Source of the DNA: a virus
Virus record (IMG/VR): IMGVR_UViG_3300016476_000584
Span: 117-64,116 of that record
Strand: one strand, 5' to 3'
Length of the DNA stretch: 64,000 nucleotides
The notes below the pieces were generated by a model. The model ran no database searches. It was given only the letters and a program-made list of their open reading frames with translations, and was not told where the DNA came from. Below are positions 44,213 to 63,838 of this stretch, piece after piece (the stretch's first letter is position 1; the number at the start of each line of letters is the position of its first letter). Both the position numbers and the translations under genes were made by a program.

Positions 44213-44329
44213 TGGTGCCCCCGTCTGGATTCGAACCAGAAACCTCTGCATTATCGTTGCAAAATTAATGGCTGTACGGATACACGACTGTATCCCTTTT
44301 AAGCGCTCTAACCATTGAGCTACAGGGGC
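44213..44329 (-). tRNA. atypical 117-nt tRNA-like gene with a ~41-nt insertion
   Basis: Acceptor GCCCCTG/CGGGGGC, a normal D-arm and T-arm (TCTGG-TTCGAAT-CCAGA) and CCA. Putative anticodon arm TTGCA-ACGATAA-TGCAG (GAU). A 41-nt insert containing hairpin GGATACA-GTCG-TGTATCC lies between the D-arm and anticodon arm. Confidence 0.4.
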
Positions 44330-44334
44330 TAACT

Positions 44335-44410
44335 TGGTCCTGACAAGTGGATTCGAACCACTCCTGTCTGATCCACAATCAGATGTGCTGACCGCTAACA
44401 CTATGTCAGA
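44335..44410 (-). tRNA. tRNA-His (GTG)
   Basis: Cloverleaf with anticodon loop TTGTGGA and T-loop GGTTCGAATCC; CCA encoded. Confidence 0.8.
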
Positions 44411-44416
44411 ATATAT

Positions 44417-44491
44417 TGGAGTCCCTAGCAGGAGTCGAACCCACATCATCGCGTTCGTAGCGCGGTGCTCTATCCATTGAGCTATAGAGAC
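44417..44491 (-). tRNA. tRNA-Arg (ACG)
   Basis: Anticodon loop CTACGAA; CCA encoded. Confidence 0.8.
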
Positions 44492-44492
44492 A

Positions 44493-44828
44493 TTAGTCGA
44501 ATTTAAAAGACGGAACTACATTAGAAAAAGTGTTCACTGTGCTATTAAATTGATTTGTAATCTTAAAAGGCGTGGAACCACTAAACTGAAAGCTAAAAGA
44601 CTGAGCAGTGATTCCGTTGCTATATGTAAAAGGCTTTTGAATATTCAGCCTTGCACTAGAGCCGTTTACAGATTTCATCTGTACGGTTACGCGTGACCCT
44701 ACATTCTGTGCGTAGGTGGACACACTATTTGAGAATACGGTTTCTGCTGATGCCGCAGAGGAGAGCAGCATCAGCAGAGGAATGAGGATACTTTTCATCA
44801 TCATTGTTTTTATATGGTGCCCCAGCAC
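44493..44828 (-). CDS. small secreted protein
   Basis: Signal peptide MMKSILIPLLMLLSSAASA; sits between tRNA genes. Confidence 0.4.
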   Translation of the reverse strand: MLGHHIKTMMMKSILIPLLMLLSSAASAETVFSNSVSTYAQNVGSRVTVQMKSVNGSSARLNIQKPFTYSNGITAQSFSFQFSGSTPFKITNQFNSTVNTFSNVVPSFKFD

Positions 44829-44889
44829 GGGATCGAACCGCGGACCTTTAACTTACTAGGTTATTGCTCTACCACTGAGCTACTAGGGC
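44815..44889 (-). tRNA. tRNA, isotype uncertain (anticodon reads AGT)
   Basis: Good acceptor, D-arm and T-arm; anticodon stem ATAAC/GTTAA with loop CTAGTAA. Confidence 0.55.
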
Positions 44890-45551
44890 AGATGTATTAG
44901 CCTAGACGCACAGCGGCTAGCTTAACACCTTTGAAACGCTTAGTAGCGCTTTCGCTTTCAGTACCTACTGCTACTACGCGAGCGATGCTCATTTCGTCAG
45001 TTAGCAGAAGATCGCCTACAACAACGTCGCCTTCAGTGCCTAGATAGGAGTAAACCTTACCTTGACCGTTGAACATAACGTCGAAAGTGAAAGCCATTAC
45101 ACGCTTGATTTGGTCAGCAGCGAAGGCTTCGTAAGTATTGGAGTCTTGCATTAGAAGCAAGAGTTTGTCGCCATCGTTAGCTTTGTATTCGCCATAACGA
45201 TTGCCGTCTACGGTTTTGTATAGTTTAACAGTCATTTCAGTTTCCTTTTTTACTGTGATTTCGTTTAATTCTTTTGCGGTGTTAGGCTCATACAGAACAA
45301 AATCGTCTTGTGTTCTGAAGCCTAGTTGTTTGCGACTGGAAAGGTATTCGCAGTGAATAGCGTACCCTTGTGCTTTTATCACACGCATTGGAGAAGTACC
45401 GTTTTTAAGACGTACAATGTCTCCCTCTTTAAATCGAGGGCCTACAATCCCACCGCTGTGTAATGTCTTACCACAACGCATAGCATTTAAAGCTATGCTC
45501 TTAGTCCAGCTATTAGATTCTAGACTAGGATTACTAGTCCAGATTATATTA

Positions 45552-46115
45552 TCAGGTTCCATCTCGCGTATCCCATGTTCCTATAATGCTCATAGCATTT
45601 TTCATATGTTTCATTAGCAAACCATTTTCGCTATCTGTCTTGATGTGGCGGCGAACGCCTAAAATTCGATCAAACTCATAGTCAGTGTCATCAAATATAA
45701 TATAGTCTTTTATTTGGCGACCGTCAAGATAATCTTTAATTTCGTGAGCACGAGTTTTACCGCGCTCATAATGATTGTCTGGATTAGTTTTCCAAGGACG
45801 ATTAAATTCACCCCGAAATCCCGCATTTCTAAAACTGGATATAATCCAATGCTCTAGCATTACATCGCTGGTGATTAAATGGTCTTTCCATGTAGAAATC
45901 AACATGAAGTACACACCATCAACACGGTCATGAATTTTATTCATGAACTCAATCGCAGTAGGGTCAAACTTATTCCATAAGTCCCGAGGATTAGCACTTG
46001 CGTACTGCACACGGGCTGAAGTAAAAACCCCGTCAATATCAAGGAACACTAGATATTTAACAGGGAGAATGTCTTTGTTATAATCCATAGTTTCCTCTAT
46101 TTTTGGTATCCCCAA
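45552..46115 (-). CDS. HAD-like hydrolase
   Basis: YLVFLDIDGVF DxDGV motif; the start may be the downstream Met to avoid the tRNA-Glu gene. Confidence 0.45.
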   Translation of the reverse strand: MGIPKIEETMDYNKDILPVKYLVFLDIDGVFTSARVQYASANPRDLWNKFDPTAIEFMNKIHDRVDGVYFMLISTWKDHLITSDVMLEHWIISSFRNAGFRGEFNRPWKTNPDNHYERGKTRAHEIKDYLDGRQIKDYIIFDDTDYEFDRILGVRRHIKTDSENGLLMKHMKNAMSIIGTWDTRDGT

Positions 46116-46180
46116 CGGGTGTCGATCCCGTTTCTCCTCCTTGAAAGGGAGGCGATCTAGCCAACGTAATCTATGGGGAC
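46104..46180 (-). tRNA. tRNA-Glu (TTC)
   Basis: Anticodon loop CTTTCAA with stem CCTCC/GGAGG. Confidence 0.7.
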
Positions 46181-46227
46181 GTTATAATTAATAATAGCTC
46201 ATCTTTTACCAGAGAGCAAGTTGTATT

Positions 46228-46306
46228 TGGTGGATCTTGCCGGAGTTGAACCGGCACTAACGTTGAGTTACAACGCCCCGCTCGCCTATACAGCAGTAAA
46301 GACCCA
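46228..46306 (-). tRNA. tRNA, isotype undetermined
   Basis: Acceptor GGGTCTT/AAGATCC, T-arm GCCGG-TTCAACT-CCGGC, CCA; anticodon arm ambiguous (CGTTG..CAACG stem). Confidence 0.45.
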
Positions 46307-46312
46307 TATATT

Positions 46313-61794: not shown

Positions 61795-61929
61795 TCATAA
61801 TTATGGCAGTTCTCAAAGCCCTTGATGGGCGATTTTCTGCTTCTAGCTGTTTGGCTAGTTCTTCTAGTTGCACGAGTACATGCTGAACGGCGTATCTCTC
61901 CACATGGCATCTGCCTTATCGTTGAATTT

Positions 61930-62005
61930 TGGTGGACCCTAGCGGGATCGAACCGCTGACCTCCTGAATGCAAATCAGGCGCTCTCCCAGCTGAGCTAAG
62001 AGCCC
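61930..62005 (-). tRNA. tRNA-Ala (TGC)
   Basis: Anticodon loop TTTGCAT; G3.U70 identity pair. Confidence 0.85.
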
Positions 62006-62011
62006 GTTATA

Positions 62012-62085
62012 TGGCAGGGGAACAGGGAGTTGAACCCTGGCTTTCAGTTTTGGAGACTGATGTGCTACCGTAACACTTAACCCCT
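62012..62085 (-). tRNA. tRNA-Trp (CCA)
   Basis: Anticodon loop CTCCAAA; acceptor stem has two U.U mismatches at its base. Confidence 0.65.
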
Positions 62086-62383
62086 AGATAACTCTTGTAG
62101 TCTGATAGCTGCTGATATAGCAGCATCAAGTTGTTCTCTTGTTTCACACATTGCAATGCACGACCAAATTTGTTCTAAGGTCAGGCCACTAAACTTAGCG
62201 TTTCCTATAGCGCTTGCAATATAGTCGTAATCAGAGATAGTATATTCCATGTAAAAATACCTGCCCATTATCCGTTGACGAGACGGTATATGTCTGGTGA
62301 CAGCAATGTAGGCGGAGCCTACACCCTTATTCTGCCTCTTGCTTCCGGCCAGACCGGCGAAGTGTCAAACAGGTACTTATAGA

Positions 62384-62459
62384 TGGTGCCCCCACGACGA
62401 CTTGAACGCCGGACCTGATGATTACAAATCAACTGCTCTACCAACTGAGCTATAAGGGC
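62384..62459 (-). tRNA. tRNA-Thr (TGT)
   Basis: Anticodon loop TTTGTAA. Confidence 0.75.
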
Positions 62460-62911
62460 AATGTTGAGACACTTACCGTGGTGTCTCGCGAGTCTATTAC
62501 GTGACCACCCGTTAGTTAGATTTGGCTGTGCCAATAAGTGCTAGTACAATTACTGCAAACAGGCCAAATAGAAAACCTAGAATAGCCCACACAGTAGTAT
62601 CACGGTTACGAGTTTTTGCCATTTCGGCACATAGCCAAGCAAAAAGAGCACCAAAAAGAATGATAATTAGAAGTTCCACGATTTTTCCTTATCGTTTAGT
62701 TAGAGAAACGCCGATAGCAACTGCAATTAGGAGAGCTGCTAAGCCGATAGCTACTGGAATCCAGATAGGGGATAATACCCACCACCAACTCCAAGCAATA
62801 GTACCTATTAGTTTATGATGTATAAAAAGTATGGTTAGCAGACCTAAAAAGCCAGTACCTCCGTTTACATATCTAGTTTTATCTGTGGTGGACATTCGAT
62901 TACCTTAAGGT

Positions 62912-62995
62912 TGGTACCCCCTGCCGGACTCGAACCGGCACTCCGTAGGAACGAAATTTTAAGTCTCGCGCGGCTACCAATTTCACCAAGGGGGC
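62912..62995 (-). tRNA. tRNA-Leu (TAA)
   Basis: Class II; anticodon loop CTTAAAA with stem CGAGA/TTTCG. Confidence 0.8.
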
Positions 62996-63176
62996 AATAT
63001 GTTTATTTGGCCCGCCCTATACCCCCGCTTCTATGGTCAGTGATATTATCTCTGTCTGCATCGACGGGCAATGCAGCCGTTGCAACACTTTACAGCTGTG
63101 TTAATTCACAGTCAGCTAATCACATAGTGCTTCAAAATGAATAGCCTATTACCGATTTGCAGCCGGTAAAATATAT

Positions 63177-63253
63177 TGGTCCGAGTGGAAGGATTTGAAC
63201 CATCGACCCATTGCTCCCAAAGCAATTGCGCTACCAGACTGCGCTACACTCGG
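63177..63253 (-). tRNA. tRNA-Pro (TGG)
   Basis: Anticodon loop TTTGGGA with stem ATTGC/GCAAT. Confidence 0.75.
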
Positions 63254-63361
63254 ATATTCGTACTGCGAGGGTCTGATTCTCGCAAGCCGAGGAAGAGAGG
63301 GAAATAACCTTCGTAGCCAGTACAGACTATAGGCTCAGGTCAGTGCGCTTTTCTTCCTAAT

Positions 63362-63724
63362 TTAAAAACTAGACTTGTACAACATGCTGCTAGTAGTAAA
63401 CGAGCGTTTCCAAGCCCATTCATCTAGCACAAGTTGATTGAAGACAACATCTTCAAGTTCAATCACATCATCTACGCTCAACTCTAGCATACGGGCAGCA
63501 CGAGTATAATCGGCTTCGTAACTAGTAGGAGCTGTAGGAACGCTCTTCATATCTTTAATCTTATCTAGATCTCCAGTGTTGGCAAGTTCCAGATTGTGCT
63601 TGGCAATTTTAACAGCTAGTGCTTTGTAATCGTCTACAGCCTCATTATACTCTGAAATGTGTTTGGCTTTATTTTCTTTTACAATAGCCAAAAGTTTTAC
63701 TTTATCAATTTTGACGCTGTGCAT
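63362..63724 (-). CDS. hypothetical protein
   Basis: 120-aa ORF between tRNA genes. Confidence 0.35.
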   Translation of the reverse strand: MHSVKIDKVKLLAIVKENKAKHISEYNEAVDDYKALAVKIAKHNLELANTGDLDKIKDMKSVPTAPTSYEADYTRAARMLELSVDDVIELEDVVFNQLVLDEWAWKRSFTTSSMLYKSSF

Positions 63725-63761
63725 TACATTCTCCTTGCTGTCTCATGTCTACCTTTATATT

Positions 63762-63838
63762 TGGTACTCCGAGAGGGACTCGAACCCCCAACCTAAGCGT
63801 TATGAGCACTCAGCTCTGACCAATTGAGCTACCGGAGT
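63762..63838 (-). tRNA. tRNA with CAT anticodon (Met/Ile2), copy 3
   Basis: Anticodon loop CTCATAA; acceptor ACTCCGG/TCGGAGT. Confidence 0.7.

Follow-up and report, generated by a model that had tools for sequence, protein, structure and literature searches.

A phage tRNA island with a near-complete decoding set, a catalytic-domain-only TilS protein and a predicted tRNA-Ile2

How a phage that carries its own tRNA-Ile2 might obtain from it a tRNA that reads AUA is the question raised by a tRNA island in a 64,000-nucleotide (nt) stretch of the IMG/VR record IMGVR_UViG_3300016476_000584 (positions 117-64,116 of the record; hereafter the window, to whose numbering all coordinates refer unless another sequence is named). 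In its unmodified state, tRNA-Ile2 with the anticodon CAU is charged with methionine and reads AUG; once C34 has been converted to lysidine, it accepts isoleucine and reads AUA instead. The window is part of a large uncultured phage, its phage context being given by IMG/VR relatives and PHROG matches; near-identical and related contigs are 165-171 kb long, and a megablast search of INPHARED for cultured close relatives gave only tRNA-sized matches. The island contains three tRNA genes with the anticodon CAU and a gene for a protein of 199 amino acids (aa), termed mini-TilS below, which corresponds to the catalytic domain of the lysidine synthetase TilS. We consider it likely that the phage brings along a near-complete decoding set and carries out the maturation of its tRNA-Ile2 itself. 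The genes central to this proposal are:

49400-49999, minus strand: mini-TilS, 199 aa, GTG start, catalytic PP-loop domain (TIGR02432, PF01171, fold)
63762-63838, minus strand: tRNA-Ile2 (CAU), predicted lysidine substrate (Rfam 61.4 bits; discriminators)
56187-56262, minus strand: initiator-like tRNA-fMet (CAU) (Rfam 53.9 bits; discriminators)
48833-48908, minus strand: elongator tRNA-Met (CAU) (Rfam 75.2 bits; 490 nt downstream of tilS)

The 199-aa open reading frame (ORF) encodes the catalytic N-terminal domain (NTD) of TilS only and not a full TilS. Its translation contains the motifs SGGVDS (residues 17-22) and AHINHG, from which an initial annotation, made on the letters of the window alone, had recognized a TilS-like PP-loop protein, and profile scores bear out this designation for the catalytic domain. 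The protein matches PF01171 with an E-value of 1.6e-31 and exceeds the curated cut-off of the NCBIfam model lysidine_TilS_N (TIGR02432; 116.6 versus 93.6 bits), whereas the models of LarE, TtcA, QatC and MnmA reach 12-21 bits and that of Pfam QueC 14.1 bits. A sequence search of the PDB retrieved three TilS structures only, each aligned solely over its N-terminal domain (25-223 of 317 residues in Aquifex, 13-201 of 433 in E. coli and 20-221 of 464 in G. kaustophilus). The AlphaFold (AF2) model, calculated with 25 homologs as input (predicted local distance difference test, pLDDT, 93.1), superimposes onto Aquifex TilS (2e89, 2e21, 1wy5) with template modelling (TM) scores of 0.81-0.84, root-mean-square deviations (rmsd) of 2.1-3.0 Å and 31% identity, the values for the ATP- and lysine-bound form being 2.1 Å and 0.84. 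The corresponding TM scores are 0.70-0.80 for TtuA-type enzymes (ca. 20% identity) and 0.44-0.45 for QueC. Profile scores and fold match thus place the protein with TilS and exclude QueC or another PP-loop family, a grouping with which the initial annotation would have been refuted; the PHROG label “QueC-like” derives from a weak partial match of 29 bits. Across the 25 homologs (48-90% identity), the motifs SGGxDS, HLDDCxET, RPF, DxxN and RNxIR are invariant.

The C-terminal domains CTD1 and CTD2 are both absent. The TilS enzymes described in the literature belong to Type I (NTD, CTD1 and CTD2) or Type II (NTD and CTD1) and always possess at least one appended domain (PMC11947777), which mini-TilS lacks; correspondingly, the full-length equivalog NF007942 yields 57.8 bits against a cut-off of 606. 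The lengths of the 120 listed homologs lie nearly all between 196 and 229 aa, with a maximum of 243. Downstream of the gene a tRNA and then a 56-aa ORF follow, and among the neighbours of mini-TilS genes no universal protein able to stand in for the missing domains was found, the neighbour families being clade-specific.

The three CAU tRNAs, announced by the initial annotation at 48.8, 56.2 and 63.8 kb, were all located, and their types can be predicted from published discriminators, which are C4-G69 with C5-G68, or G3/A3/C70/U70, for tRNA-Ile(CAU) and A11-U24 with G12-C23 for tRNA-fMet (Silva et al. 2006, PMC1635315). The tRNA at 63762-63838 combines A1:U72, C4:G69, C5:G68, A73 and the loop CUCAUAA, does not have A11:U24 and G12:C23, and shows evident homology with one of the two CAU types found next to TilS in the loci L013 and L014. 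The tRNA at 56187-56262 carries A11:U24, G12:C23, C3:G70, the 5' end UGCGGGG and GGCUCAUAACC; its position 1:72 is a U:A pair and not a mismatch, two of the three anticodon-stem G:C pairs are present, and its relatives follow the same pattern. Neither the Ile nor the fMet discriminators occur in the tRNA at 48833-48908, whose loop is CUCAUAU. By these discriminators, the three genes would be of the Ile2 type, initiator-like and elongator Met, respectively. The earlier claim that one CAU tRNA is a tRNA-Ile2 converted to lysidine by a phage enzyme therefore holds for the Ile2 features of 63762-63838, whereas the enzymatic step is part of the scenario that we propose in the following.

Codon counts from 69 coding-strand ORFs revealed that AUA makes up 18% of the Ile codons (10.3 per 1000 codons). 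For the most frequent codons of Leu (CUA, 34%), Thr (ACU, 51%), Val (GUA, 37%) and Arg (CGU, 44%), the island provides the matching tRNAs Leu(UAG), Thr(AGU), Val(UAC) and Arg(ACG). In this comparison, which covers the phage codons and thus the phage side of the anticodon check suggested by the initial annotation, the anticodons match the phage-preferred codons. We propose that the island supplies at least one tRNA per amino acid and for every codon box, the latter with two Arg tRNAs beyond the window, plus an initiator-like tRNA. Mini-TilS would adenylate C34 of the phage tRNA-Ile2 with ATP, as cellular TilS does; subsequently, lysine would displace AMP, forming lysidine at C34 and switching the tRNA from AUG/Met to AUA/Ile. 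The AUA codons of the phage might then be readable at high phage tRNA dosage, independent of the host TilS. A phage that over-produces tRNA-Ile2 would need a matching modifying capacity. By analogy with the cellular enzymes, we infer that mini-TilS is catalytically active, chooses its substrate without CTDs and is of benefit to the phage.

The mini-TilS family comprises at least 1,796 proteins at E<=1e-10 on contigs of up to 357 kb, and at least 548 IMG/VR contigs carry a relative. Among 185,579 species-representative genomes, full-length relatives were found only on contigs of metagenome-assembled genomes (MAGs) of incoherent taxonomy, the N-terminal domains of cellular TilS in these genomes being 24-35% identical to mini-TilS. 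The IMG/VR relatives and the taxonomically incoherent MAG contigs point to a family of phage origin. Sampling 80 IMG/VR loci with flanks of up to 10 kb, we found tRNAs in the flank of mini-TilS at 33 loci and CAU tRNAs at 21. About eight independent lineages have one or two CAU tRNA genes upstream of mini-TilS, at distances of 16-350 nt. Of the CAU tRNAs no more than 500 nt away from mini-TilS, 16 are of the Ile type and one is of the Met type; farther away, 11 Met, six fMet and five Ile types were counted. Matches of mini-TilS in INPHARED are confined to PA5oct-like phages and two huge phages. In a 634-kb phage (L096, LR745206), mini-TilS is located between two tRNA clusters that include CAU tRNAs; at 7224-7298 and 30424-30495, CAU tRNAs and tRNA-Ile(UAU) genes accompany mini-TilS, and this genome thus holds two alternative ways of reading AUA. 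In the Pseudomonas jumbo phage vB_PaeM_MIJ3 (L095), the CAU tRNAs at 2151-2227 and 2632-2708 have the D, anticodon and T arms in common and are distinguished by the acceptor stem alone (Met-type C3:G70 versus Ile-type G3:C70). A difference restricted to the acceptor is puzzling if an NTD-only TilS cannot read the acceptor stem.

Several observations weigh against the proposed maturation of tRNA-Ile2 by mini-TilS. In the window, the Ile2-type tRNA lies 13.8 kb away from tilS, and the CAU tRNA beside tilS is of the Met type. At 47 of the 80 sampled loci no tRNA was present in the flank of up to 10 kb, and about 35 of these loci adjoin conserved non-tRNA genes, so that the association of the enzyme with phage tRNAs is not a constant one. 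In Burkholderia TilS, the loss of CTD2 alone dramatically reduced lysidinylation (PMC11947777). Moreover, the tRNA(CAU) of a T4-like vibriophage carries lysidine at C34 (k2C34), as determined by mass spectrometry (Yang et al. 2021, cited after the review PMC13191261); this phage is without a mini-TilS match in INPHARED, which indicates that a host TilS can modify a phage tRNA. Because the host TilS suffices in the vibriophage, the phage TilS is probably a device for capacity or independence and not a strict requirement.

The extent of the decoding set was established by two programs. ARAGORN predicted 28 tRNA genes in the window (44335-63838), all on the minus strand, and Rfam at gathering thresholds likewise gave 28 tRNA matches in the whole window, of which those at 44216-44329 and 51971-52043 were missed by ARAGORN. 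Calls made by ARAGORN only were rescued above the Rfam tRNA gathering score of 29 bits with laxer filters in a search limited to the array region (Tyr, 36.5 bits; “Val(AAC)”, 31.6 bits). The union amounts to 30 tRNA or tRNA-like genes on one strand (minus) over 19.6 kb (44216-63838), in agreement with the minus-strand array of about 30 genes and near-complete codon coverage described initially. The Rfam scores span 31.6-75.2 bits, the 26 canonical members scoring 36-75 bits; none of the 30 genes falls below the covariance threshold, so that the suspicion that most of them might be pseudogenes was not borne out. CCA is encoded in 29 of the 30 genes, the exception being 54143-54213, and “almost all” was thus an apt description. 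Every isotype listed in the initial annotation is present, and Thr(AGU) as well as four non-canonical members have to be added to its list. As co-oriented, covariance-model-positive tRNA genes in a phage genome, they constitute a phage tRNA gene cluster. The genes of the window leave no amino acid without a tRNA and fill 15 of the 16 codon boxes. The array extends past the window end: in the near-identical contig L092, Arg(UCU) and Arg(CCU) are encoded at 3006-3165 directly upstream of the Ile2-type tRNA, which completes the AGN box and raises the total to 32 tRNAs. A role of the island in a takeover of translation, as suggested by the initial annotation, may be envisaged. Besides the CAU tRNAs, the canonical members are as follows (called by ARAGORN and Rfam unless specified):

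44335-44410, minus strand: tRNA-His (GUG)
44417-44491, minus strand: tRNA-Arg (ACG)
44815-44889, minus strand: tRNA-Thr (AGU), A34 (Rfam 63.5 bits)
46104-46180, minus strand: tRNA-Glu (UUC)
46313-46389, minus strand: tRNA-Ile (GAU)
47113-47188, minus strand: tRNA-Phe (GAA)
47363-47438, minus strand: tRNA-Lys (UUU)
47886-47969, minus strand: tRNA-Tyr (GUA), long variable arm (ARAGORN; Rfam score as above)
49102-49177, minus strand: tRNA-Cys (GCA)
50725-50799, minus strand: tRNA-Val (UAC)
52636-52712, minus strand: tRNA-Asp (GUC)
52721-52808, minus strand: tRNA-Ser (GCU)
53019-53108, minus strand: tRNA-Ser (UGA)
53789-53864, minus strand: tRNA-Asn (GUU)
54037-54121, minus strand: tRNA-Leu (UAG)
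55011-55085, minus strand: tRNA-Gly (GCC)
55093-55166, minus strand: tRNA-Gly (UCC)
61174-61248, minus strand: tRNA-Gln (UUG)
61930-62005, minus strand: tRNA-Ala (UGC)
62012-62085, minus strand: tRNA-Trp (CCA)
62384-62459, minus strand: tRNA-Thr (UGU)
62912-62995, minus strand: tRNA-Leu (UAA)
63177-63253, minus strand: tRNA-Pro (UGG)

In Thr(AGU) (44815-44889, minus strand), the loop with A34 is kept in four relatives and the anticodon stem covaries. Other than Arg(ACG), tRNAs with A34 are unusual in bacterial systems.

The four non-canonical genes among the 30 are:

44216-44329, minus strand: five-arm tRNA, 114 nt (Rfam 49 bits with a 54-nt insert; fold z-score -4.3)
46228-46305, minus strand: weak “tRNA-Val(AAC)” (ARAGORN; Rfam 31.6 bits)
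51968-52043, minus strand: non-canonical Arg(UCU) paralog (Rfam 43.8 bits; ARAGORN “?(Arg|Pyl)”)
54143-54213, minus strand: tRNA-like “Asn(AUU)” (Rfam 41.7 bits, model positions 3-68)

The five-arm tRNA has normal acceptor, D and T arms and a CCA end, and an insert of ca. 41 nt, which contains an invariant 7-bp hairpin, separates position 26 from the anticodon stem. Its anticodon arm, UUGCA-ACGAUAA-UGCAG, presents GAU together with C33. In seven metagenomic variants (L119-L130) the loops read ACGAUAA, AUGAUAA (GAU, Ile) and CUGUUAA (GUU, Asn); the canonical loops enclosed by UUGCA/UGCAG identify this arm as the anticodon arm, in which the anticodon changes on a constant body. The intron model of ARAGORN (Asn AUU, 25-nt intron) was rejected, as the relatives break the stem on which it is built and possess canonical loops in the other arm. 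An exact-pattern search of IMG/VR for the extra-arm hairpin and the 3' half of this tRNA gave no match. The tRNA-like gene at 54143-54213 has an acceptor stem of only 5 bp and no CCA, and its loop varies with the strain, containing AUU in the window, UCU in L012 (898-968), GCG in L007 (6656-6726) and 8 nt in L011 (6064-6135); the body is otherwise 89-97% identical across the relatives and includes a compensatory T-stem change. In the “Val(AAC)” gene at 46228-46305, which sits between Ile(GAU) and Glu in the closest relatives only, G3.U70, the alanine identity pair, coincides with the loop GUAACUC and its pyrimidine U37, and its function as a decoder is doubtful.

The paralog at 51968-52043 is closest to Arg(UCU) and differs from its counterpart in L012 (3286-3361) by two compensatory stem changes. 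Its anticodon loop GCCCUAAC is 8 nt long, or 6 nt long with a closing G:C pair, with CCU, CUA or a quadruplet as candidate decodings; the 7-nt loop with CUA at 34-36 that characterizes an amber suppressor is thus absent. The syntenic ortholog in L007 (8280-8354; TilS identity 78%) has the canonical CUA loop CUCUAAA and scores 66 bits. Because this relative possesses a CUA-type tRNA, we looked for TAG recoding, and none was seen in the window, the late genes being situated outside of it: reading TAG as sense gave no preferential ORF lengthening, TAG ends six of the 82 coding-strand ORFs, and TAG-separated in-frame ORF pairs are not enriched. The odd features of the array fit either ordinary phage tRNA turnover or selection by tRNA-targeting defences (PMC10264068, PMC11555353). 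In a far-reaching interpretation, the tRNA mimics with strain-swapped anticodons (44216-44329, 54143-54213 and 51968-52043) would either counter host anticodon nucleases, as decoys or as substitutes resistant to them, or be recoding devices, and the catalytic domain of TilS would suffice by itself for lysidine synthesis, selecting its tRNA by the anticodon arm alone; to this combination we attach little credence.

Further genes related to translation or RNA metabolism in the window are:

11189-11536, minus strand: PTH2-fold protein, 115 aa, candidate peptidyl-tRNA hydrolase (AF2 fold match)
23193-23655, minus strand: transfer-messenger RNA (tmRNA), permuted two-piece, tag ANDNVAPVKLALAA (ARAGORN; Rfam RF04321 99.9 bits and RF01849 60.6 bits at the same locus)
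45552-46115, minus strand, in the array: HAD_SAK_2 protein with an RNA-repair-type HAD phosphatase domain (PF18143, 6.2e-15)
48027-48473, minus strand, in the array: Macro-domain protein (PF01661, 1.1e-06; 29 bits versus a cut-off of 22)

Two tmRNA genes had been annotated initially; ARAGORN and Rfam give one, the permuted gene at 23193-23655, and neither program found a second one in the window. Permuted two-piece tmRNAs are confined to a few bacterial lineages, and this gene may be a hint at a host lineage with two-piece tmRNA. For the proposed PTH2-like hydrolase, the Pth2 fold is supported by the AF2 model (moderate pLDDT of 73.5), the top Foldseek hits in the PDB being 1rlk, 1xty and 2zv3 (TM 0.64-0.67, probability 1.0), whereas the match to Pfam PTH2 (PF01981; E=0.063, 13.9 bits) remains under the gathering cut-off of 23 bits. 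Of its 25 homologs, 18 match PTH2 weakly (best E-value 0.0034), and a GenBank phage record labels a homolog as putative peptidyl-tRNA hydrolase.

Other ORFs interspersed in the array (57571-58026, 58592-59128 and 59436-60002, all minus strand) bear labels that include PD-(D/E)XK nuclease, HNH endonuclease and T7-kinase-like, the latter two being precomputed Pfam labels only; a profile scan of 59436-60002 gave no match. At 27841-28173 (minus strand) a 110-aa CDA-fold deaminase with HAE...PCxxC is encoded (PF00383, 36 bits). It was considered as a phage TadA for the A34 tRNAs and is not assignable to TadA. Its neighbours on either side are a Pnk-like AAA_33 kinase and a metallophosphoesterase (28214-28738 and 26786-27442, both minus strand), and the group may represent an RNA-repair or RNA-editing cassette. 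The window further contains an NAD+ salvage pair consisting of a phosphoribosyltransferase resembling NAMPT (nicotinamide phosphoribosyltransferase) and a fusion of nicotinamide mononucleotide (NMN) adenylyltransferase with Nudix (36860-38287 and 38515-39573, both minus strand), and, adjacent to the island, the minus-strand genes 42168-43604, 43688-44134, 30222-31184 and 31316-32653 with the assignments DUF2828/DUF7788, ferritin-like (a precomputed label), PstS-like phosphate-binding and SPFH/Band 7.

The selective reason for the island might also lie in counter-defence or self-sufficiency, the phage replacing host tRNAs that are cut by anticodon nucleases or lost in the phage-induced shut-off of the host. 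Mini-TilS would then mature new tRNA-Ile2 once host expression is off, and the odd tRNAs would be nuclease-resistant variants or decoys. Evasion of tRNA-targeting defences by phage tRNAs has been put forward in the literature (PMC10264068, PMC11555353); compatible with it are the RNA-repair-type proteins in or near the array (HAD_SAK_2, Macro, and the AAA_33/Pnk-like kinase with the metallophosphoesterase), the strain-dependent anticodon loops on constant bodies and a set complete for 20 of 20 amino acids, instead of rare codons alone. However, the anticodons follow the phage-preferred codons, for which codon supply alone is a sufficient explanation, and neither a nuclease or ligase nor a defence context was recognized. 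We regard counter-defence as a possible but rather doubtful motive; it overlaps with the proposed supply and maturation of tRNAs and differs from it in the selective reason only. The notion that much of the array is made up of pseudogenes in decay, without a role, can appeal to the four odd members, with their 5-bp acceptor stem lacking CCA, 8-nt loop, U37 combined with G3.U70, and 41-nt insert, but is highly improbable in view of 26 canonical members at 36-75 bits and of the compensatory stem changes or invariant arms that even the odd members display across strains.

With respect to the enzyme, mini-TilS might target the tRNA-Ile2 of the host or any CAU tRNA and thereby raise AUA decoding in general. 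Such a target would suit the many relatives at loci without a tRNA in the flank of up to 10 kb, the conceivable restriction of an enzyme without CTD1 and CTD2 to reading the anticodon arm alone, and the identical anticodon arms of the Met-type and Ile-type CAU tRNAs in MIJ3. It appears unlikely, since Ile2-type genes lie 16-350 nt from mini-TilS in about eight independent phage lineages and an indiscriminate enzyme would also modify tRNA-Met, at the expense of Met decoding. Even less probable, in our opinion, is a TilS-derived PP-loop ATPase with another chemistry or substrate, or an inactive protein. All domains known to bind the tRNA body are missing, TtuA-type sulfurtransferases fit the fold (TM 0.70-0.80) and the Cys in HLDDC is invariant, all of which speaks for this possibility; yet the score for the TilS model exceeds the curated cut-off, with TtcA, QueC, MnmA and LarE remaining at 12-21 bits, identity is 31% to TilS compared with ca. 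20% to TtuA, a CxxC Fe-S motif is absent, and strong purifying selection acts on the family, which is linked to Ile2-type tRNAs. Supply of a near-complete decoding set, combined with maturation of the phage's own tRNA-Ile2 by mini-TilS, thus remains our preferred interpretation.

Large phage tRNA arrays are well known. Neither phage tRNA islands nor phage tilS genes are new, and the window adds another case. A TilS (gp263) of the Pseudomonas jumbo phage vB_PaeM_MIJ3/PA5oct (Wroclawvirus) was reported in 2019 with its function left open (PMC6892783), and a phage TilS was mentioned for pelagimyophages (PMC7029224). In the searched literature, the coverage of which is partial, we found no statement that phage TilS is uniformly NTD-only, forms a phage-specific clade and repeatedly adjoins Ile2-type tRNA genes. 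How enzymes without a domain reading the acceptor stem tell tRNA-Ile2 from tRNA-Met is an open question of TilS enzymology (PMC11947777). The window offers a natural minimal system in this regard, one genome encoding a catalytic-domain TilS of 199 aa, its presumed substrate and two look-alike CAU tRNAs that have to be avoided, and three transcripts together with one small protein of the widespread mini-TilS family could be enough to answer the selectivity question. The five-arm tRNA and the anticodons that vary between strains, in turn, are relevant to the debate on codon supply versus defence evasion as the role of phage tRNAs.

In comparison with known systems, mini-TilS shares the catalytic PP-loop domain, the motifs and the fold with the cellular enzymes of Type I (E. 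coli, G. kaustophilus) and Type II (A. aeolicus), which in contrast possess CTD1 and, in Type I, also CTD2. The tRNA clusters of large lytic phages (T4-like vibriophages, KVP40-type and huge phages) resemble the island in their many co-oriented tRNAs matching phage codons. With the suppressor tRNAs of stop-codon-recoded phages there is a connection through the canonical tRNA(CUA) at the syntenic site of L007, whereas the window copy differs by its 8-nt loop and by the lack of TAG recoding in the window. The vibriophage with k2C34 likewise uses a phage tRNA(CAU) as tRNA-Ile2, to which the phage of the window adds a gene for the putative modifying enzyme. MIJ3 differs from the window in having 12 tRNAs compared with ca. 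32 and shows no nucleotide similarity to it, but it is alike in the features relevant here: its TilS is NTD-only (203 aa; coding sequence of 612 nt), 41% identical over 92% of the query, and encoded on the same strand as, downstream of and within a few kb from a tRNA cluster with initiator, Met-type and Ile-type CAU tRNAs.

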